64,000 nt of DNA. It comes from Candidatus Woesearchaeota archaeon (GTDB taxonomy: Archaea > Nanobdellota > Nanobdellia > Woesearchaeales > GW2011-AR9). Of the stretch, positions 4,853 through 49,195 are shown piece after piece (position 1 is the stretch's first letter; each line of letters starts with the position of its first letter). The stretch spans positions 1,496 to 65,495 of the forward strand of contig JACPND010000033.1 in NCBI GenBank assembly GCA_016185625.1, given 5' to 3'. A program made the position numbers and the translations under genes. Below the pieces are notes generated by a model. That model saw only the letters and a program-made list of their open reading frames with translations, was not told where the DNA came from and made no database searches.

Positions 4853-5164
4853 ATGCCAGAACAAGTTGCCGAAGAAATCATCCGTGTACGTCTGCCTATA
4901 GGACAAGAAGTGCTGGGCATCGTGCAGCAGCGCCTCGGTGGCAGCCGGATGCGCGTGACCTGCCTGGATGGAAAAGAGCGCATCTGTCGGATTCCGGGAA
5001 GACTGCGCCGGGCCTTGTGGGTGCGTGAAAATGATGTGGTTATTGTTGAACCATGGGAACTGGGCGGCGACGAGAAAGGCGACGTGGTGCATAAGTATCG
5101 CGGAAAAACAGAAGTGGAATTCTTGCGCAAAAGGGGATATCTTAAAGGATTGGAAGAATTGTAG
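4853..5164 (+). CDS. eif1a: translation initiation factor 1A (aIF-1A/eIF1A)
   Basis: S1-like OB-fold protein, RVRLPIGQEVLGIVQQRLGGSRMRVTCLDGKERICRIPGRLRRALWVRENDVVIV; start at the Met of MPEQVAEE inside the longer ORF 4640..5164. Confidence 0.9.
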   Translation: MPEQVAEEIIRVRLPIGQEVLGIVQQRLGGSRMRVTCLDGKERICRIPGRLRRALWVRENDVVIVEPWELGGDEKGDVVHKYRGKTEVEFLRKRGYLKGLEEL

Positions 5165-5319
5165 ATTAGAAAGATTGGGCACTGTCCGTTTTGTGAGTGA
5201 TGTGCCGATGTGTGCAGTGAGGGAGAAGGCATAATGCTGTTCGGAGGTTGGATTAGCACTATAAACGCAGCGAGATGCTGTGAAATCACTACGATTAATC
5301 CACCAGAACTGCGGCACAG

Positions 5320-5399
5320 CAGTCACTCACAAGATGAGGCAACGACCTCATCTGTGCACCAGTGAAGTAGTTTCTTTACTTTGTGTTTTGGATAGTGCC
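5320..5399. repeat. fragment of MITE family B
   Basis: Contains CACTCACAAG ... GGCAACGACC ... GAAGTAGTTTCTT ... GTTTTGGATAGTGCC blocks shared with copies at 2636, 6841, 18293, 49228. Confidence 0.4.
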
Positions 5400-5491
5400 A
5401 AGGATTGTAACCATTATCTTTGAGAATAGAATTCTGAGAATAGAAATTCCACTAGCAATATGCTTATATAGGCAACCCCATTAAAACGTAG

Positions 5492-6028
5492 TTGATGAGA
5501 CGAGCAAAACTTCTGGCATATACCGTTTTGTCGCTGGCCCTGCTTGTCGGCCTGCTGCAGATTTTCATCGAAAAAAGCGGGAAGTTCTTTGTCTTAGAGT
5601 TTGCAGGAACCTTCCTGATGCTGCTACTCATATTGGTTGGGTTCATTGGTTACAGCTTACGGTGGGGAGAACGTTTGTTCTTCCTGGTAAGTGTTTTTTA
5701 TCTGGGAAATCTGGTTTTAGTCTGGTATTTTAAGGGAGCGTTCTATGTCATCCTGGCCTTGCTGGCACTGGTGCTATTTGGGTTGAGCTTTCCGCGCCAG
5801 AAATTACTATCATCGGATCAACCGGCGTCAGCGAAACCTGCAGCGAAATTTACCCCGGGGAAATATGTCGCCAGTGCACGAAGCAATGTATACCATGAGC
5901 CGAAATGCGACTGGGCAAAAAAGATTGATCCCACACGGCAGGTCTGGTTCCAAAGCAAAGAGGAAGCGGAAGAAAAGAAATATATGCCGCACAGCTGTCT
6001 GACTACTTCTTCCACGAAATCAGAATAA
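5492..6028 (+). CDS. membrane protein with C-terminal Ada-type zinc-binding-like motif
   Basis: 4 predicted TM helices, then VYHEPKCDWAKKIDPTRQVWFQSKEEAEEKKYMPHSC (YHxPxC..N.vwF.S.eeA...Y.P...C pattern). Confidence 0.45.
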   Translation: MMRRAKLLAYTVLSLALLVGLLQIFIEKSGKFFVLEFAGTFLMLLLILVGFIGYSLRWGERLFFLVSVFYLGNLVLVWYFKGAFYVILALLALVLFGLSFPRQKLLSSDQPASAKPAAKFTPGKYVASARSNVYHEPKCDWAKKIDPTRQVWFQSKEEAEEKKYMPHSCLTTSSTKSE

Positions 6029-6431
6029 TACCGATAACGCTGAGGGTTATTGCCGTATCCGCAACATTAAATGCCGGCCAGAAGCCAAAATCAATAAAAT
6101 CTATCACATAGCCCAGAAATAGGCGGTCAATGAGATTTCCTATTACACCTCCTAAAAATATTCCCCACAGGACAAAAAGAATTTTCTTATCGGCTGCCAG
6201 TTTTGTATGATGATAGATGACGATGATAGCGACAAGGAGCGAAATGATCGTTAGCACCCCAGTATAATTCTGCAATATGCCAAATCCCGCACCGGTATTT
6301 TTGACGAGGTGAATTTGCAGGAGAGTGAGATCCAGCGCAGAATCTGTAACCGCCGCCAGATATTTTGTAAGCTGATCCAGCAACACTACACCAACAGCAA
6401 TAAGCCAGAACAGCCCATGACGATTTACCAT
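6003..6431 (-). CDS. lspA: lipoprotein signal peptidase II
   Basis: LDQLTKYLA..., conserved NxGAAFG-like block (NTGAGFGIL), FNVADTAITLSVIGIIL; 4 TM helices. Confidence 0.8.
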   Translation of the reverse strand: MVNRHGLFWLIAVGVVLLDQLTKYLAAVTDSALDLTLLQIHLVKNTGAGFGILQNYTGVLTIISLLVAIIVIYHHTKLAADKKILFVLWGIFLGGVIGNLIDRLFLGYVIDFIDFGFWPAFNVADTAITLSVIGIILISWKK

Positions 6432-6796
6432 AATTTTTTGTCTTTGCGCTGTTGCTCAATATTGGCCAGACGCTGATCTAGCGAGGCCAGCAGCGCTTTG
6501 ATGGTATCCAATTTGCTGTTGATGAGTTCCAGCTCGCGATTGGGAAAAGCGGCGGCACTGGGACCGGGGTACCGGGATGACGCAACAGGCGTGGGTGTTA
6601 ATGGCCTGCTGAATGGTGAGGCAGTCGTTGCCGCTGGAGGCTCTTCCTGAAACGGCGACTTTTCCTGATAGCCGGGCCATTCGCCGGGAGCCGGTTCTGA
6701 ATGAGCAGTTTCTTTTTCTGCAGCCTCCTTCTCTACCAGCTTGTCAAAATCAAACTCGTCCTCTTTTCTCCAGAATTTTAATTTTTCAAAGACCAT
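6425..6796 (-). CDS. hypothetical protein, Pro-rich linker plus C-terminal coiled coil; overlaps lspA start (operonic)
   Basis: ORF track; low-complexity P/S/A-rich middle, LELINSKLDTIKALLASLDQRLANIEQQ heptads. Confidence 0.4.
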   Translation of the reverse strand: MVFEKLKFWRKEDEFDFDKLVEKEAAEKETAHSEPAPGEWPGYQEKSPFQEEPPAATTASPFSRPLTPTPVASSRYPGPSAAAFPNRELELINSKLDTIKALLASLDQRLANIEQQRKDKKLW

Positions 6797-6840
6797 TTTT
6801 AGAGTAATGCCGAAGAAGTTTTTAACTCTTTTGCTTTTAG

Positions 6841-7050
6841 GGCACTACGGTTTTGTGAGTGATGGCTAGGCAATGTGTGAGCCGAGACGGGAAACCTATC
6901 CCGTCTTGCAACGATCCCTTCTTGCGTCAGCGTTCGATGTACACGTCAAAAGCGAGAGAGGGTCACTGCGTTCTCTAGTTACTTACACTTCGTTCCAGCA
7001 ACAGATGGCTGTGCTTCACTTCAGGAAGCTGAAGTATCACTCAAGAATTC
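6841..7050. repeat. MITE family B, long variant (degenerate copy)
   Basis: Begins with TIR GGCACTACGGTTTTGTGAGTGAT; shares GGGAAACCTATCCC.TCTTGCG...GTGCTTCACTTCAG.AAGC blocks with the 36840 copy. Confidence 0.5.
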
Positions 7051-7343
7051 TACCGTATCGGTATCCTCAGGAACTTCTTGCATTCGAAACAGGAAATGAT
7101 CACTTTCCCGCCACGGGTTCGTATTCTCACATTCACCCCTGGCATTAAGTATTTATAACAATGCTTACAGAAACACCGCTTTAATTCTTTAGGGATCCGC
7201 ATCCGGTTCTTCATGGCGATTTTTCTGGCAAGAGTGACGTAACGATTGGCTAAAGCTTGGTCAGAAGAGAAGGATTGCTGGGCTAAAGTAAAGAGGTCAT
7301 TAATCTTTTCTAAAGCAGTATCCTTATTTTTAATCGGTTTCAT
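7050..7343 (-). CDS. rnp4: RNase P protein subunit Rpp21/Rpr2
   Basis: C-terminal zinc ribbon CFCKHC...CFECKKF with basic N-terminus typical of Rpr2. Confidence 0.75.
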   Translation of the reverse strand: MKPIKNKDTALEKINDLFTLAQQSFSSDQALANRYVTLARKIAMKNRMRIPKELKRCFCKHCYKYLMPGVNVRIRTRGGKVIISCFECKKFLRIPIR

Positions 7344-7418
7344 CGTTTATTTGGAAAGATGGGCCGCTTTATTAAATTTCCCAGAAAAAAATATAAAAGA
7401 GCCGCATTTTAGAGAACT

Positions 7419-7727
7419 ATGCCCCGCGGACGCCCCACCAGAAGCCAGATCCGGCAGAACGTTGTGGAAATATTGTACTATCTGGAAAAAGGATATGGGT
7501 ATCAGATCAGCAAGATTTATCTGGCCATTTTTCCCAAAGTTACCCAGCGCAGCATCTATTACCATCTAAAAAGGGGAGTTTTGACCAAAGAGATCGAAGT
7601 GCAGAAGATTGCCCAGGAGAAAGGAGATTTTTCCTGGGGGCCGGATGTAGAAAAGACCTATTACACACTGGGCAAGCTGGCGAAGCCGAAAGGAGATACC
7701 AGAGTAAAAGAGTTTTTGAAAAAGTAA
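7419..7727 (+). CDS. small winged-helix DNA-binding protein (PadR-like?)
   Basis: ILYYLEKGYGYQISKIYLAIFPKVTQRSIYYHLKRGV wHTH-like. Confidence 0.45.
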   Translation: MPRGRPTRSQIRQNVVEILYYLEKGYGYQISKIYLAIFPKVTQRSIYYHLKRGVLTKEIEVQKIAQEKGDFSWGPDVEKTYYTLGKLAKPKGDTRVKEFLKK

Positions 7728-7740
7728 AACCCTGAAAAAG

Positions 7741-8067
7741 ATGATAAGGATGACGTTTGCGGAAAAAGTGTACGATGTGGTGCGGAAAGTGCCGAAAGGG
7801 AAAGTAACGACCTATAAAGCGATTGCCAAAGCGTTGAATACCAAAGCCTATCGAGCAGTTGGGCAGGCGTTGCGCTGCAATCCGTATGCGCCGGAAGTGC
7901 CCTGCCATCGGGTAATATGTTCTGACGGAAGTATTGGCGGATTTGAAGGAAAGAAAAAGGGTAAAGAAATCCAGAAAAAAATAAATTTATTGCAGGATGA
8001 AGGGATGGCGATAATTAATAATAAAATCGATAAGCGCTACTTTTTCAAACCCCCAGCATCTCCCTGA
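7741..8067 (+). CDS. ogt: methylated-DNA-protein-cysteine methyltransferase (DNA-binding/active-site domain)
   Basis: VPKGKVTTYKAIAKAL...PCHRVICSDGSIGGF (PCHRV active site). Confidence 0.85.
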   Translation: MIRMTFAEKVYDVVRKVPKGKVTTYKAIAKALNTKAYRAVGQALRCNPYAPEVPCHRVICSDGSIGGFEGKKKGKEIQKKINLLQDEGMAIINNKIDKRYFFKPPASP

Positions 8068-22573: not shown

Positions 22574-23194
22574 TTAATTCACTCCTCCAAACAGTGGAGA
22601 CAGCTTAGTCAGAAAAAGAGGAGCCAGCAGGAACCACACGATAGTAATTATAATCAATGAAATAATTGTAGGGATGACATACATTAAAATAGCTTTGGTT
22701 CTGCTAATGCTGTGAACCTTTTCTGTTCCGAGTACCAGCAATATAAACGACCAGATCCAAGCTGCAAAGCTAACCAAAGGAATCCATCCTAAGATAAGGG
22801 TAGGGGTTCTGGCATATACCACTAATTCAAAAGTCTTGGCATACTTGTTTTTTCCCCTGAATATGAGAATCCATGCGTGAACTATTCCTGCCATGGCAAA
22901 AATAAGACCCAATCCTAGGATGTAGGTCCAGATAGAGTTAAAAAAAACTTTACTCACACTAAATTTTGTCATTGCGGCCGAAATTATCGGACCAAAAACA
23001 GGCATTGCCAACAAAGAAGGTGCAATCAGAAAAAAAAGAATCAAGCTGATGATAGCAGACATTACTGTCGCAAAAAGAGAAAGTGCTGCGAAATAACCAA
23101 AAGCGAAATCAAGATGATTATCACCTTTCCCGACGCGTTCAAAGAAAGAAGCTGGTTCCGTAAGTACTTTCTGTATGACTTTGAAGATATTCAT
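22574..23194 (-). CDS. Yip1-like multi-pass membrane protein inserted in r-protein operon
   Basis: 5 TM helices, Yip1-domain-like topology; no r-protein homology. Confidence 0.45.
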   Translation of the reverse strand: MNIFKVIQKVLTEPASFFERVGKGDNHLDFAFGYFAALSLFATVMSAIISLILFFLIAPSLLAMPVFGPIISAAMTKFSVSKVFFNSIWTYILGLGLIFAMAGIVHAWILIFRGKNKYAKTFELVVYARTPTLILGWIPLVSFAAWIWSFILLVLGTEKVHSISRTKAILMYVIPTIISLIIITIVWFLLAPLFLTKLSPLFGGVN

Positions 23195-37260: not shown

Positions 37261-37884
37261 ATGAATAAACGAAAATCTTTTGTTACATTTCTTCTTCTGT
37301 TATCTCTATTTTTATTATCCTGTATTCCTGAAAAATCCATCCAAAAAAAAACTATCGTCACCGATACTAATCAGTCATATGGTGAGGGTTCAGAAGAGGA
37401 ATATTATACAGATTTAGCCATGGTAGAAAGAAATCAAACACTCTGCACTAAGATTTTAAAGGAGAGTTCTAGAGATGCTTGTGTTAGCCGTGTGGCTATT
37501 GCGTTAGAGAGCACTTCTATTTGTCAGCAAGTGAATGATGTGTTTGTAAAAAACGATTGCGTCCTCGCAGCCAGTGCTAATTTACTCTGTATGAAAAAGC
37601 AGGAACAAGAAGAAAAAGACCTATGCTATATTGGCGCAGGGAGAGTTCGAAAAGATCTTTCAAGCTGCAATCGAATTGTAAATAACGACTATAAAGATTC
37701 GTGTATAGCTGTGGTGGCACGAGAAACTCAAAACATTCGTTTATGTGCAGAAATTAACACTAAAGAAAATAGTGATTGGTGCTATTTAGTGTTAGCGGAC
37801 GACACTCAAAATATTTCACTCTGTCAAAAAATCGTTGATATAGACCTTCGCCGCAGATGTTTAGGAATGCAAGAAATTTCTTGA
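37261..37884 (+). CDS. secreted/lipoprotein with tandem Cys-containing repeats
   Basis: Signal peptide plus lipobox-like LLSC; reiterated motif (S/N)(I/L)C..I....(D/N)xC(V/I/Y)...A roughly 8 times. Confidence 0.45.
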   Translation: MNKRKSFVTFLLLLSLFLLSCIPEKSIQKKTIVTDTNQSYGEGSEEEYYTDLAMVERNQTLCTKILKESSRDACVSRVAIALESTSICQQVNDVFVKNDCVLAASANLLCMKKQEQEEKDLCYIGAGRVRKDLSSCNRIVNNDYKDSCIAVVARETQNIRLCAEINTKENSDWCYLVLADDTQNISLCQKIVDIDLRRRCLGMQEIS

Positions 37885-43445: not shown

Positions 43446-44393
43446 ATGAAAAAGAGAGGATTGTTTTTACTGTTAGCGGTAGTTCTTATTCTCCTTGTTT
43501 CCTGCCAGCGCGTGCCGCAAGGACAGCAGCCACTGGAAACCGCCGCCGCATTAAAACTGGTCCAATCTGGCACGCAGGGTGTGGAAATTTTGACGCTCGC
43601 TAATTATCCTCCTGCTTTGGTCTACGATCAAAATGAGTTAGTGACCATCGTCGAAGTCAAAAACAAAGGCAACCATGATCTTACTCAGCAGGACTGTTTC
43701 GTGCAGATAACTGGCTTCGACCCCAACATCATCCGCGGCGGATTTAACATCCCCCGTTCCTGTGCAGAAAATGTCAATATCTTGGAAGGAAAAAATGTCT
43801 ACAATGTCGAAGGGAGCTCCAATCAACTGGAATTCCGTGCTCCGACGGTGAACTTACCGTCCGGCGTGTTTGAATACAATCCGGTATTGAATTTTGTTAC
43901 CTGTTATAATTATCATACTACGGCCAGCCCTTCGGTCTGCGTCGATCCTTTATTTTATCAAGTGACTTCACAGCAAAAGACCTGTCTGCCTCATAATGTG
44001 GGTACGGGCGGCGGCCAGGGCGCTCCGGTGGGTATCAGTTATGTTGGCGTGAACATGGTCGGCAGCAAAGCCATTTTTGAACTGAATGTCGTTAATTATG
44101 GAACGGGACGTGTCCTGAGTCCGTATGCCGGCATCCAGAACTGCGGTGAAGCTTCAGTATCGTATACTGACCTCGATAAAGTAGGATATAAAGTCCAGTT
44201 GAGCGGCGGAAGCCTGATCGACTGCAAGCCGAGAGACGGCTTTGTCCGCTTAGTGAACAACCAGGGAAAGATTGTCTGCCAGTTCAGCATTCCCGGCGCC
44301 TCGGCTTACGAAACGCCTTTGTTAGTTGATTTGGATTACAGCTATATCCAATCATATCAGAAGCCGGTGAAGATTATCAAGACACCGGAGTAA
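43446..44393 (+). CDS. secreted Cys-containing lipoprotein (hypothetical)
   Basis: Signal peptide with LVSC lipobox; ~10 Cys, beta-rich. Confidence 0.45.
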   Translation: MKKRGLFLLLAVVLILLVSCQRVPQGQQPLETAAALKLVQSGTQGVEILTLANYPPALVYDQNELVTIVEVKNKGNHDLTQQDCFVQITGFDPNIIRGGFNIPRSCAENVNILEGKNVYNVEGSSNQLEFRAPTVNLPSGVFEYNPVLNFVTCYNYHTTASPSVCVDPLFYQVTSQQKTCLPHNVGTGGGQGAPVGISYVGVNMVGSKAIFELNVVNYGTGRVLSPYAGIQNCGEASVSYTDLDKVGYKVQLSGGSLIDCKPRDGFVRLVNNQGKIVCQFSIPGASAYETPLLVDLDYSYIQSYQKPVKIIKTPE

Positions 44394-45352: not shown

Positions 45353-45363
45353 GGTGTTGATTT

Positions 45364-45567
45364 CAATTGATGGTGTGAAGGACTCAGGTATAGTAGCTTA
45401 TTTTCTACTTATTCAGAGCTGAACCGGGTCAAACCTGTGGAAAACCTGCTTTGTTTATTCTCGACGGTTTTCCATTCTGTTCCTGTAAAAAGGCGTAGCA
45501 GGTTTGACAACAATCTGGCCAAGCTCCTCTTTTTCACTTCAGAAAGAGAGTTCTACTACCATCAATT
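45364..45567. mobile_element. palindromic MITE-like element, family C
   Basis: 10-bp TIR AATTGATGGT/ACCATCAATT; nested stems GGTATAGTAG/CTACTACC, GTCAAACCTG/CAGGTTTGAC, TGGAAAACC/GGTTTTCCA. Confidence 0.4.
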
Positions 45568-46157
45568 ATGAACTTTGTAATCCGTATGTTTTGATTATGG
45601 TGATCTTCCAAAACTATTTGCACAGGTGGACAATAAAAGGGGGAACCTTGATGAACAAGAATTCGTAGCTATCGTAAGTTTAATTGTTGGAGCGGACGCT
45701 TCCTATTTATTTCAAAAAGCTGGAGTAATTTAAAACACTTCTGAAATAAGCTGATACGTAACATTTCATGAGAAAATCTTATATAATCCTCTTCAAACTG
45801 GTTCGCTGATGCAAGAAATTCCCTCAGAATACCCCGGACAGTATGTTGCACTCATAGTGATTGTGAATTATTTTCGAACATTTGTGCACTTTCCTATACT
45901 AATAAGCAGATGTGTAGAATAATGTTTGACACATTAGCTATACCAAAGGACATAAATAATTCAAGTCACTTCGTTCGTGAGTTGCCTGATGGCAACTATA
46001 CAAAAGTTATGTCCTTTGTATATAGCAACTGTTAATAATTGTCTAAACACGAGAAATTGGCGTGCAATTTCTGTGCCCAAAAGTGTATCCAAATAAAATG
46101 CTCACCTTTAAGTACATGCCCACAAAAAAGAAGCAGACAGTCACTGGATAACCTATT

Positions 46158-47087
46158 ATGAAAGCCCCTGAAATCGTCGGCATCGAACCGCAGAACTGGT
46201 TCAACAGCAGGCCGCTTACCCTGAAACAGCTTCGCGGAAAAATAGTGCTTTTAGACTTCTGGACCTATTCCTGCATCAATTGCCTGCGGACACTTCCGGC
46301 ATTAAAAGAGATGTGGCGAAAGTACCAGGATAAAGATGTTGTCATTATCGGCATCCATACGCCGGAATTTGAATTTGAGAGAGACCTCAGCAATGTCCGC
46401 AAAGCCGTCAAGAAGCAGGGCTTAGAATATCCGATAGCCAGCGATCCGGAACGATTTAACTGGGATAATTATGGGAATCAATATTGGCCGAGAGCCGCGT
46501 TGATCAGCGCTGACGGGGAAATCATTATGGAGCATGTCGGCGAATCCGGCTACGACGAGATCGAGCAGAAAATTATTGCCGAATTGAAAAAGATGGGAAA
46601 ATTGAACTCAGGAACACCGCTGCACGAAGAAAAACACTATCATCATCCCGAAATCTCACCAGAGATCTATGCCGGCAGTTCCCGCAACGAGGGATTAGGT
46701 TCACGGCAGGTCTGCACGGCCAAAGGCTGTGAGGAATATTACGATCCAGGCAAGCATCGGAGAAATGTGATCTACTTGCAGGGCGACTGGAAGCAGTATG
46801 CAGAATATTTGGAATTTAGGGAAGAGAAAGGGTATATTCTCCTGCCGTATTTTGCCCGGGAAGTGAAGGTCGTTCTTTCGGGAACGGGATTGGCGGAAGT
46901 GTTATGGAACGACAAACCACTCGGCAAATACGCCGGAAAGGACATCGCAATGAAGAACAATAAAAGTTACGTCAAGATTGACGGTTCAGATCTGTATCAT
47001 CTGATTCAAAATGAGGAATTTCAGGAAGGCATAGTGAAGATCATTCCCTTTTCCAGGATGAAAGTGTATGCGTTTACTTTTGGGTGA
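46158..47087 (+). CDS. thioredoxin-fold thiol-disulfide oxidoreductase (TlpA/redoxin-like) with extra C-terminal domain
   Basis: WTYSCINCLRT CxxC active site in redoxin fold; ~150-aa C-terminal domain of unknown function. Confidence 0.7.
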   Translation: MKAPEIVGIEPQNWFNSRPLTLKQLRGKIVLLDFWTYSCINCLRTLPALKEMWRKYQDKDVVIIGIHTPEFEFERDLSNVRKAVKKQGLEYPIASDPERFNWDNYGNQYWPRAALISADGEIIMEHVGESGYDEIEQKIIAELKKMGKLNSGTPLHEEKHYHHPEISPEIYAGSSRNEGLGSRQVCTAKGCEEYYDPGKHRRNVIYLQGDWKQYAEYLEFREEKGYILLPYFAREVKVVLSGTGLAEVLWNDKPLGKYAGKDIAMKNNKSYVKIDGSDLYHLIQNEEFQEGIVKIIPFSRMKVYAFTFG

Positions 47088-47244
47088 GGATGAGGGCGGA
47101 TAAAGTGGGTTATACAACATCTTACTTGCCCCGCTTTTGATGTAAAAATTCTACCAAGTACCCCGTTGTTTAGTGCAGATAATTCCTTCATTTTTTGATT
47201 GCTGCAATGCACTTATAAGTAATTTTTTCGCTTCAGGCGTTAAA

Positions 47245-47346
47245 GTCTTTGCCAAATCCTCTGTGCAGATGCAGATACAGCAGTCGCAGCATGGACAGAC
47301 GCCGCCTTTGCAGCATTGTTCTTTTTTTTCATCTTTTCCATTTTGC
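47245..47346 (-). CDS. possible small peptide (33 aa) downstream of ccdA
   Basis: GGAGGT 7 nt upstream of ATG; MEKMKKKNNAAKAASVHAATAVSASAQRIWQRL; lies in a CTGC-repeat tract. Confidence 0.2.
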
Positions 47347-47356
47347 TTACCTCCAA

Positions 47357-48226
47357 TTATTTTAAAAAAGGGAAAAATATCTTTACAAAAATCTGGTTTC
47401 CTTCAAGGGTTAACAAGGCAATGGCTAAGCCAATAACGATCATCACCACTGCCGCAACCTTTTTGATAATGGGTGCAGCTGCTATGAGATAAGGGGTCAA
47501 GGCATTCTTAAACAACCCGGCAAGGACTGTCAATAAAAACATCAACAGTCCCATCGTGAGCGAAAAGATGAGAAAGGCAGTAATTGCACCGGCAAAGCTG
47601 GCGCTGGCAAACGCATACAGAAGCAATCCCAGCATAATGGGCCCAGTACAGCCGATTGCTGCACCGTTATATAATAAGCCATAGAAAAAAATACTTTTGG
47701 TAAATCCTTTTTCTGCCATCAGGCGATAAATCCATGAAATATTAATGCTCTTCCCCAACAAAGTAAAAACTCCTAAGCTTGCTATTAGTATCCCGGCAAC
47801 AATACGAACACCAAGGATAATGGCAATATCTTGTCGCGGATCTTTGGCAAAGGGAGTAGCAGCTCCCAGCGCCGCAATCGTTACCCCGACGATCATGTTT
47901 ACTACAACGATACCTGTTGCGCCAACCAGTCCCAGATATGCTGATTGCCGGAAGGTTTGTGCTTTGGTCAGTTTTCTTACTCTCCCTCCTGTCAAAAAGT
48001 GCGCAACATATCCCGGCAGCACCGTAAATGCGCACGGACTAAAGAAAGCCGCGAGACCAAAAATAATGCTTAATATTATGAGAGGAAATGCCCCCAGACG
48101 TTCGGGCATCATAACGTTATAGATTGCTCCTAAAAATCCAAAATAGTAACCTAAAAATCCAATGAGCACTACCGCAACCAAGACGTATAAAGAATAAATT
48201 AATAATTTTTTATTTTCTGATCCCAT
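47357..48226 (-). CDS. ccdA: CcdA/DsbD-family thiol-disulfide transporter (cytochrome c biogenesis-type)
   Basis: Multi-pass TM with SPCAFTVLPGY motif. Confidence 0.75.
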   Translation of the reverse strand: MGSENKKLLIYSLYVLVAVVLIGFLGYYFGFLGAIYNVMMPERLGAFPLIILSIIFGLAAFFSPCAFTVLPGYVAHFLTGGRVRKLTKAQTFRQSAYLGLVGATGIVVVNMIVGVTIAALGAATPFAKDPRQDIAIILGVRIVAGILIASLGVFTLLGKSINISWIYRLMAEKGFTKSIFFYGLLYNGAAIGCTGPIMLGLLLYAFASASFAGAITAFLIFSLTMGLLMFLLTVLAGLFKNALTPYLIAAAPIIKKVAAVVMIVIGLAIALLTLEGNQIFVKIFFPFLK

Positions 48227-48659
48227 CTTTCTTCCCTCTTAAATTTAATACCATACCTAATAGTAATCCTAGGAGTGAGATATAATAGACTGGGTTTGAC
48301 ATCATCACAAATATGCCGATATAGATCAGAATTGAGCTAACAATAATCAAGATTAGAGGAAATTTCTGTTGGTGGAATCTGTAGGAAAAATAGGTGCTTA
48401 TGATGCCAACGAGCAATAACACTATTAAAATGGATTCTAAGATTTTTAAGTCAATTCTGGTTAAAAATCCTAAACCGATGAAATTAAGCAATTTTAATGA
48501 AAAATTAACACCATTTGCAGACATTGCTCCCATAGCAACTGCCCCAGTAGCCGCTATTGTCGTGGTCATTATTGCCATACAGCCCAACGACGCGATGGCG
48601 CTGCCGGTGCTGCAACAGGCACAGGCTATTTTTGTCGATAATAATCTATTTTTTGGCAT
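48210..48659 (-). CDS. small membrane protein with CACC motif (MerT-like?)
   Basis: KIACACCSTGSAIASLGCMAIM then 3 TM helices; overlaps ccdA start by 17 bp (operonic). Confidence 0.4.
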   Translation of the reverse strand: MPKNRLLSTKIACACCSTGSAIASLGCMAIMTTTIAATGAVAMGAMSANGVNFSLKLLNFIGLGFLTRIDLKILESILIVLLLVGIISTYFSYRFHQQKFPLILIIVSSILIYIGIFVMMSNPVYYISLLGLLLGMVLNLRGKKDGIRK

Positions 48660-48871
48660 TTTTGCTTTGCACCGAACAATAATAATCTCTTCCAGCAAGG
48701 ACGTCAGCTTTATATATTATACCTACTTTCTATTGTATAGTATAAGAACTATTTAAATCCAGAGGTTTGAAAATGGAAAGTAACAATACTTACAAAATAG
48801 AAAGTAAAGCCCTAAAAAATCAAAGATCTTTGGGGCACAGAAAATTAGAAGAATTTTCTCGTGACTGCAAG

Positions 48872-49195
48872 ATGCGTTCAGCTACAGGATATTGTCCTCG
48901 CCCTCTTGAAACCGCTTCTGCATTTTTGAGCAAAAAATGGACAATTTCAATGGTAATAACCATCGGCAATTTTAAGAAATTGAGATTCAATGATATTGAA
49001 CGAAGACTTGAGGACATAACTGCAAAAACACTTACGGACAGATTAAAAGAGTTAGAAAAAGAGCAAATTGTTATGAGAAAGGTCTATTCAGAAATTCCTC
49101 CAAGAGTGGAGTATTCTTTAACTAAAAGAGGAAGAAGATTAATGAAAGCACTAATCCCGCTTATTCACTGGGCTGAAAATGCATCATCTCGATAA
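48872..49195 (+). CDS. HxlR-family transcriptional regulator
   Basis: CPRPLETASAFLSKKWTISMV...RFNDIERRL..ITAKTLTDRLKELEKEQIVMRKVYSEIPPRVEYSLTKRG; divergent from the ccdA operon. Confidence 0.75.
   Translation: MRSATGYCPRPLETASAFLSKKWTISMVITIGNFKKLRFNDIERRLEDITAKTLTDRLKELEKEQIVMRKVYSEIPPRVEYSLTKRGRRLMKALIPLIHWAENASSR

Follow-up and report, generated by a model that had tools for sequence, protein, structure and literature searches.

Positions 46158 to 49195 of a 64,000-nucleotide stretch from a Candidatus Woesearchaeota archaeon (contig JACPND010000033.1; the whole stretch is called the window in the following) hold a compact gene cassette. An HxlR-family regulator is arranged divergently to two overlapping genes, which encode a MerC-like and a CcdA-like membrane protein and are followed by the gene of a small cysteine-rich peptide. 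A DipZ-type redoxin gene is convergent to the cassette. The window is archaeal, with flanking genes for the ribosomal proteins S19e, L3 and L4 as well as for Nop56, fibrillarin and Cbf5, and its CcdA-like protein shows 100% identity with HYX14_05210 from a metagenome-assembled genome (MAG) of Candidatus Woesearchaeota. An Rfam scan of the whole window found no RNA element. An earlier note, made from the sequence alone, had listed four open reading frames (ORFs) with their strands, all of which are present. From the comparison with related loci, we suggest that the locus is, on balance, a mer-type cassette for soft metals, most likely Hg(II) and less likely Cu(I) or Cd(II), which operates without mercuric reductase (MerA).

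The MerC-like protein is encoded on the minus strand within an ORF at 48210-48698. Since the 87% identical homolog P0001 begins in the same way, translation most likely starts at 48659 (MPKNRLL), which leads to a gene at 48210-48659 and a four-helix membrane protein of 149 amino acids (aa). It carries an N-terminal CACC motif, a GCM cysteine in the first transmembrane helix (TM1), a Met/Ala/Gly-rich loop and the motif IGLGFL. Its match to the Pfam family MerC (PF03203) reaches 27.1 bits at a cut-off of 27.6 (E 6.6e-6, profile positions 10-108), and PF03203 matches are precomputed for its homologs P0001 and P0002. When the window proteins were scanned against Pfam and NCBIfam, there was no match to the NCBIfam MerC model (NF033784) and none to MerT (PF02411), MerP or HMA at E<=0.1. 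The first helix, formerly described as MerT-like, would rather be part of a divergent MerC-family protein. The CACC motif is present as described, but its first cysteine is not conserved among the four closest sequences; invariant in these is CC-x10-C, i.e. the cysteine pair and a cysteine 11 residues downstream. Three close homologs were retrieved by a word-indexed search and 71 representatives by a full HMMER profile search. Members of this subfamily have a cysteine in the context VCM or GCM in helix 1, often with CxxC or CC a few residues upstream, then the Met/Ala/Gly-rich loop (Met-rich, MxGM), the IGLGFL motif and three more helices.

The CcdA-like gene (47357-48226, minus strand) shares 17 nt with the MerC-like gene, as is also the case in L002 and L003, two of 44 surveyed loci which we collected by look-ups of exact proteins and by scanning genomes and metagenomes, and which were annotated by phmmer and motif scans. 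The protein consists of an extra N-terminal helix and a core of six transmembrane helices, which would be organized as a 3+3 repeat. Each half of the repeat (TM1, TM4) has one cysteine that is invariant in 16 sequences, C65 within FFSPC and C193 within GCTGP. The SPC motif, named in the earlier note for CcdA/DsbD, is confirmed; the protein is remote from canonical CcdA and close to mer-operon CcdA. Using the DsbD/CcdA superfamily profiles PF02683 and PF13386, the window protein obtains 18.0 bits for DsbD_2, below the threshold of 24.9, and DsbD_TM is matched by nine of 16 homologs with 50-73% identity (best E 6.8e-10). At least 199 family members above 50% identity were found in MAGs of Woesearchaeota, Pacearchaeota, Aenigmatarchaeota, Uhrbacteria and others.

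The best plasmid matches in a tblastn search are 'CcdA' genes of Staphylococcus mer operons. In pTW20_1 (NC_017352.1), the gene order is merR - TlpA family - CcdA - merT - merA, so that the pairing of CcdA with a Hg transporter, considered unusual before, is a known arrangement. An hhalign comparison with the Staphylococcus mer-operon CcdA gave a probability of 99.2% (E 2.8e-19, 31% identity, both cysteines aligned), versus 29.6% for canonical CcdA of a related Woesearchaeote. The hidden Markov model (HMM) of the family assigns 85 bits to pI258-type mer CcdA and about 30 bits or less to other DsbD-type ORFs, and the canonical CcdA ORFs of L020 (233 aa), L041 (270 aa) and L040 (407 aa) remain undetected at E<=10. 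By these scores, the CcdA-like protein is placed in a branch of the DsbD family that is close to mer-operon CcdA and far from the canonical proteins. Mercury resistance has been listed among the roles of the DsbD family (PMC4608589), and CcdA-domain 'mercury transporters' have been listed for mer clusters of actinomycetes (PMC12195606). A weak tblastn match at 22634-23068 was considered as a second CcdA of the window and rejected; it is a membrane ORF without cysteines, flanked by ribosomal-protein genes and SecY-like genes.

The CcdA-like gene is followed, at 47341-47151 of the minus strand, by an unannotated gene that the earlier note had missed. It reads MEKMKKK/EQCCKGGVCPCCDCCICICTEDLAKTLTPEAKKLL..., where its reading frame is interrupted. 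The frame containing the cysteines continues for 59 codons without a stop, and tblastn (E 3.7e-23) relates it with 83% identity to an ORF of 44 aa in L022. Such a peptide is present in 14 of approximately 33 distinct cassettes. It comprises about 44 aa with nine cysteines and has the consensus MAKKKxCCxGGVCPxCDCCICICTKxLKKxLxPEARKLLxxALA, in which CCICICT is invariant. A profile search collected 35 clusters, all of them unnamed or 'hypothetical' and from DPANN MAGs (labelled Nanoarchaeota). No family of Pfam or NCBIfam, metallothioneins included, was matched. The homologous peptide genes show 946, 729 and 1646 differences at codon positions 1, 2 and 3, respectively, and half of the differing codons are synonymous. 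This third-position bias and the synonymous codons identify the Cys frame as the coding frame; judged by the same exchanges, the peptide is under purifying selection.

The ATG at 47341, preceded by GGAGGT, is in a frame other than the Cys frame. The window reads ATG GAA AAG ATG AAA AAA AAG AAC..., and either a -1 shift at A_AAA_AAG (47329-47321) or a run of nine instead of eight adenines is needed to arrive in the Cys frame. An independent Logan contig, L044 (1149-1290), has the identical A8 run and diverges further downstream, where its peptide ends with ...LLISALQ and a stop codon. We conclude that the A8 run truly exists in the DNA. In L043, the homologous gene has nine adenines and is in frame. 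A hairpin 5 nt downstream of the slippery site folds no better than shuffled sequences (z -0.06). Programmed frameshifting, transcriptional slippage and a mutation of the homopolymer phase type are all possible explanations of the A8 state.

The redoxin gene (46158-47087, plus strand) encodes a TlpA/ResA-like thioredoxin fold with the motif WTYSCINC, whose residues 18-131 match the AhpC-TSA and Redoxin profiles. Both the CxxC motif (CINC) and the C-terminal domain of about 150 aa had been pointed out before. The latter, then thought to be novel, was checked for forming a family of its own and is a known domain: residues 167-309 correspond to Thioredoxin_10 (PF17991, 85.9 bits, E 5e-24). Residues 3-255 align with the soluble part of DipZ from Mycobacterium tuberculosis (PDB 2HYX and 5CYY, E 4e-39). 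The proposed extracytoplasmic location of the redoxin is unsupported, as signal peptide and membrane anchor are both lacking. The protein starts with MKAPEIVGIE, its N-terminus is not hydrophobic, and an in-frame stop codon is located 6 nt upstream of the ATG. The region 45353-46157 was searched for a lost anchor or a remnant of an upstream canonical CcdA gene, and neither was found. The closest redoxin homolog at the locus level, a protein of 370 aa in L020, has a signal anchor and is encoded downstream of a canonical CcdA. Because a DipZ-type neighbour occurs only in the window and in L020, the linkage of the redoxin to the cassette is loose. Other TlpA-like redoxins are found near the cassettes of L013, L017 and L043. 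The window cassette itself has no gene for a thioredoxin-like partner that is anchored or secreted.

The region of about 800 bp upstream of the redoxin gene (45353-46157) has no ORF above 60 aa and no Rfam match. A Cys-containing ORF of 40 aa with a TTG start, MSKHEKLACNFCAQKCIQIKCSPLSTC..., is located at 46039-46161; its stop codon overlaps the redoxin ATG (ATGA), and it is absent from the protein collection.

The regulator is a YodB-like winged-helix protein of the HxlR family (PF01638, 89.4 bits at a cut-off of 20.8, E 1.4e-25), encoded on the plus strand in an ORF at 48767-49195. Its divergent orientation to the membrane protein genes is confirmed and is kept in 10 loci. Translation probably starts at 48773 (MESN...), giving a gene at 48773-49195. 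The NCBI version starts at 48872 and has 107 aa, which omits a conserved upstream cysteine, while most cluster mates have 119 aa. All 13 of the 13 cassette-linked HxlR homologs, in the same divergent position, share the motif C-[KR]-M-[KR]-x(3-4)-G-Y-C-P-x-P-L-E with its N-terminal cysteine pair. We take the second cysteine (GYCP) to be at the position of the reactive cysteine in YodB/HypR-type sensors; the first is specific to the cassette-linked subfamily. Compared to L021, the window protein has 19 additional aa (ALKNQRSLGHRKLEEFSR) inserted after its MESN start and ahead of the DCKM motif. Formaldehyde sensing by HxlR proteins works via a Cys-x-Lys mechanism. This was judged unlikely here, as the residue at +2 from the aligned cysteine is R, K, Q, I or C, with no conserved Lys.

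The divergent control region (48660-48772) contains two TATA-like boxes, at 48710-48721 for the minus-strand operon and at 48750-48757 for hxlR. They flank an inverted repeat, TACT-N11-AGTA (48724-48742), and further copies of GAAAGTA at 48776-48782 and 48800-48806 overlap the hxlR start. Palindromes of the form TA(C/G)T-N11-A(G/C)TA next to an AT-rich box are shared by L019, L031, L032, L041, L042 and the window. This arrangement suggests repression at a putative operator between divergent archaeal promoters.

About 33 related CcdA-like loci share a recurrent set of neighbours, i.e. an HxlR or a Cys-tailed ArsR regulator, the Cys-rich peptide, and CxxC membrane proteins and/or MerC-like proteins. 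All neighbour counts are lower bounds, since many contigs are shorter than 3 kb. Besides the 10 loci with divergent HxlR and the 14 with the peptide, a Cys-tailed ArsR was found in about six, a membrane protein of about 160 aa with a transmembrane CxxC (TTCPFC type) in 12, and a MerC-like protein, including fusions, in eight. Natural MerC::CcdA-like fusions (P0117 with 398 aa, P0128 with 420 aa) add to the recurrent pairing, so that the linkage of the MerC-like and CcdA-like genes, indicated by the earlier note, goes far beyond chance. A further fusion, P0145, joins HMA to a MerC-like domain.

True MerA occurs next to the CcdA-like gene in L004, L017, L029 and L033. The operon of P0117 has the order ArsR - MerC::CcdA-like fusion - 41 aa - MerA, and this MerA scores 509 bits against an NCBIfam equivalog cut-off of 454, with the active site GGTCVNVGCVPSK and a C-terminal SCCV. 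The order is MerA - MerC-like - CcdA-like in L017 and L033, and CcdA-like - MerA in L029. In L043, an HxlR gene and a peptide - CxxC membrane protein unit stand back-to-back with ArsR - MerA (480 bits) - TlpA-like - CC membrane protein; genes for CopZ and for a P-type ATPase follow further along the contig. The ArsR proteins that head MerA operons (L004, L043) and those of peptide cassettes without MerA (L011, L020, L025, L027) have the cysteines LKxC...K[FY]CxxLCC in common. In L016 (9290-11089) and L030 (1233-3303), the CcdA-like gene is followed by a protein of about 600 aa with an N-terminal HMA fused to a membrane domain, and by an HMA protein of 75 aa.

Several further genes were observed in or around the related loci. 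A dual-specificity-phosphatase-like protein with an N-terminal CCQ and the motif HCxxGxGRAPT is encoded in L010 (11807-12265), L013 (4402-4875), L017 (2593-3111, inside the MerA operon) and L021 (53-499), and is absent from the window. In L026, the MerC-like and CcdA-like genes of an HxlR-peptide cassette are separated by a MacB/FtsX-type ATP-binding cassette (ABC) exporter with two permeases and an ATPase (4870-7992), which hints at an efflux component in some versions of the cassette. A Cys-rich zinc-ribbon-like protein of about 53 aa, with a weak DUF7128 match and the pattern CxxC...C-x3-C...C, is found beside CcdA-like genes in L001 (231-392, next to a glutaredoxin-like gene), L006 (1256-1414), L018 (8861-9019) and L028 (1325-1495). 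A disulfide reductase of the flavin adenine dinucleotide (FAD) type other than MerA, with GGTCLNRGCIPSK and HPALSEV and without a C-terminal CC, is divergent or convergent to the cassette in L014 (811-2166) and L037 (2816-4189), where it could be an alternative redox partner. Within the window, two Cys-rich predicted lipoproteins (37261-37884 and 43446-44393) had been counted as part of the module. This was rejected, as the two share no homology and are both missing from the 43 related loci. Both lack a Pfam match and are 'hypothetical' at NCBI; the one with 207 aa shows a repeated ...C-x(7-12)-C... pattern.

Two readings had been offered for the module, disulfide-bond formation and the handling of metals such as Hg or Cu. 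The MerC fusions, the MerA and HMA neighbours and the closeness to mer-operon CcdA favour the handling of metals, and disulfide-bond formation is kept as a rival. As to substrate, direction of transport, function of the peptide and chemistry of sensing, we infer the following model from the sequence comparisons. The MerC-like and CcdA-like proteins would be co-translated from their overlapping genes and jointly form a membrane path lined by Cys and Met. C65 and C193, located in an inverted 3+3 repeat of the kind that undergoes alternating access in CcdA, could carry the metal across the membrane as a bis-thiolate. On the cytoplasmic side, it would be handed over to the nine-Cys peptide of about 44 aa, acting as a thiolate sink or chaperone, and the CxxC of the redoxin, which has no signal peptide, may be a further acceptor. 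The HxlR/YodB-like repressor would sit on TACT-N11-AGTA between the TATA boxes and be released once its N-terminal Cys pair is metallated or oxidised.

A number of points weigh against this model. The established biochemistry of CcdA/DsbD is the transfer of electrons and not of metals, and HxlR/YodB-type regulators are known as sensors of electrophiles and oxidants, not of metals. Our literature search yielded no metal-sensing HxlR, and on mer-operon CcdA/TlpA genes annotation-level mentions only rather than experimental work. A canonical mer operon has MerA and a Hg sensor of the MerR or ArsR type; in the 64-kb window, no MerA was detected (phmmer on all ORFs; best tblastn E 5.4), and the regulator is an HxlR protein. 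Also in the relatives, MerA adjoins only four of the approximately 33 CcdA-like loci. Import of Hg(II) without reduction looks self-harming unless sequestration is very effective. The Cys frame of the peptide has no start codon of its own, and the gene is out of frame in the window. Both membrane proteins of the window narrowly miss their Pfam thresholds, MerC and DsbD, respectively, and the Met-rich loop together with the HMA and CopZ neighbours fits Cu(I) as well as Hg(II).

Some of these points lead to other explanations. The locus might encode a trans-membrane thiol-disulfide reducing pathway. Electrons of a cytoplasmic donor with a thioredoxin fold, in the window the DipZ-type redoxin, would then be relayed by the CcdA-like protein to the Cys pairs of the MerC-like protein and of further membrane proteins with CxxC, or to proteins of the surface. 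The HxlR/YodB-like regulator would switch on this pathway under disulfide or electrophile stress, and in mer operons the pathway would only keep Hg-binding thiols reduced. This is in agreement with the DsbD_TM and DsbD_2 matches and the two invariant membrane cysteines, with the YodB-like CP cysteine kept in the regulator, and with the recurrence of thioredoxin-fold neighbours (TlpA-like, Grx, DUF929, TrxR-like) in L001, L006, L013, L020 and L040. In addition, DipZ (Rv2874) itself is a fusion of CcdA and a redoxin. However, the family is remote from canonical CcdA and close to mer-operon CcdA, its fusion partner is a MerC-family and not a thioredoxin domain, and MerA, ArsR-type metalloregulators and HMA proteins are encoded nearby. 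No Ccd or Dsb pathway is known to involve a cytoplasmic peptide with nine cysteines. Furthermore, L020 has a separate canonical CcdA and an anchored DipZ-type redoxin beside the cassette, which suggests two distinct systems. We thus hold the reducing pathway to be rather unlikely, but of the alternatives it is the one to be taken most seriously.

If instead another thiophilic metal is handled, i.e. Cu(I), Zn(II), Cd(II) or As/Sb, the cassette would serve homeostasis or uptake, the peptide would be a metallothionein or chaperone, and the MerA neighbours would merely mark general metal-resistance islands. The MerC-like subfamily has a Met-rich MxGM loop, as usual for Cu(I)/Ag(I) sites, L043 encodes CopZ and a P-type ATPase, L016 and L030 encode HMA proteins, a BlaI/CopY-family regulator precedes the peptide in L040 and another one is nearby in L041, and the window is without MerA. 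We nevertheless consider this explanation improbable: the MerC-like and CcdA-like genes of L004, L017 and L033 are inside a MerA operon and not just near it, the nearest annotated relative is mer-operon CcdA, and the same ArsR subtype heads both MerA operons and cassettes without MerA. Least plausible by far is a decaying cassette with no current function. The Cys frame without its own start codon, the redoxin without the N-terminal anchor of its L020 homolog and the 800-bp ORF-poor gap upstream of the redoxin would be explained in this way. Against decay, the MerC-like, CcdA-like and HxlR ORFs are intact with all invariant residues retained, the Cys frame is still open for 59 codons at 83% identity to the L022 homolog, and the identical A8 state recurs in a second strain variant, L044.

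Going beyond the mer-type cassette as such, we tentatively propose, as a possibility with a good deal of doubt, that DPANN archaea and some bacteria of the Candidate Phyla Radiation (CPR) have a defence against Hg or soft metals that is independent of MerA. It would consist of a MerC-like/CcdA-like relay leading to the undescribed CCICICT peptide family, under control of a new HxlR subfamily of metal or thiol sensors, and in the window the peptide would be made only via -1 ribosomal frameshifting or transcriptional slippage at A_AAA_AAG. If this is true, the unexplained CcdA-type genes of Gram-positive mer operons would join a wider family of Cys-relay metal carriers, with members in DPANN archaea as well as CPR bacteria. 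The peptides would make up a new family, likely of the metal-thiolate type, and the HxlR regulators would gain a metal- or thiol-sensing branch. Ultra-small groundwater symbionts would then handle mercury-like metals without a reductase, which is of relevance for mercury cycling in anoxic aquifers and for the reading of 'mer-like' genes in metagenomes. The annotation of the deposited MAG is corrected at three points: it lacks the peptide gene, starts HxlR at 48872, and leaves the CcdA-like and MerC-like genes as 'hypothetical'.

A comparison with known systems puts the individual parts into perspective. With MerC, the transporter of organomercurials and Hg(II) of the Tn21 type (PF03203), the window protein shares four predicted helices, basic cytoplasmic termini and GLGF(L) after helix 1, and its subfamily is found inside MerA operons in L017 and L033. 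It differs in the position of the cysteines. Compared to the Tn21 MerC sequence, which we take as the reference, the place of the canonical CxxC in helix 1, just before GLGF, is held by the Met/Ala/Gly-rich loop (VAMGAMSANG in the window), and the cysteines of the subfamily (CxxC/CC and 'VCM') are 25-35 residues further N-terminal; the NCBIfam MerC model is not matched. The peptide resembles small prokaryotic metallothioneins (MymT, SmtA/BmtA) in being tiny, predicted cytoplasmic, and composed of about 20% Cys in CC, CxC and CxxC clusters, as well as in being encoded together with metal-handling genes. The invariant CCICICT core, an amphipathic C-terminal helix and the lack of a family match set it apart. 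The regulator has the winged helix of the YodB/HypR-type HxlR repressors from Bacillus, the conserved Cys-Pro of their N-terminus, directly before the LxxKW helix, and a divergent arrangement with a palindromic TACT...AGTA site. Unlike these, it is archaeal, has a second conserved cysteine 9-10 residues upstream (C-[KR]-M-[KR]), and its presumed targets are mer-type membrane proteins.

The redoxin has the two-domain soluble module of M. tuberculosis DipZ (Rv2874; 2HYX, 5CYY), SCINC and Thioredoxin_10, and since a DsbD-family gene adjoins it, the pair resembles a split DipZ. DipZ, in contrast, combines a CcdA-like domain at the N-terminus and a soluble part outside the cytoplasm in a single polypeptide, whereas the window redoxin is a separate, convergent gene without export signal, and the adjoining membrane protein is of the mer type rather than canonical. 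For the cassette as a whole, the best counterpart is TlpA-CcdA-MerT of the pI258-type mer operon from Staphylococcus aureus. Here as there, a DsbD-family protein with both cysteines aligned is encoded beside a small, Cys-bearing membrane protein of a Hg-transporter family and a thioredoxin-fold protein, in a unit under a thiol- or metal-responsive regulator. The window differs by the lack of MerA and MerB, by HxlR instead of MerR and a MerC-like instead of a MerT protein, by the extra N-terminal helix of the CcdA-like protein and the added nine-Cys peptide, and by a redoxin that has no anchor and is only 20% identical to the pI258 TlpA. The cassette thus already resembles known mer transport, and what is new are the putative control by HxlR, the absence of MerA and the undescribed Cys-rich peptide.

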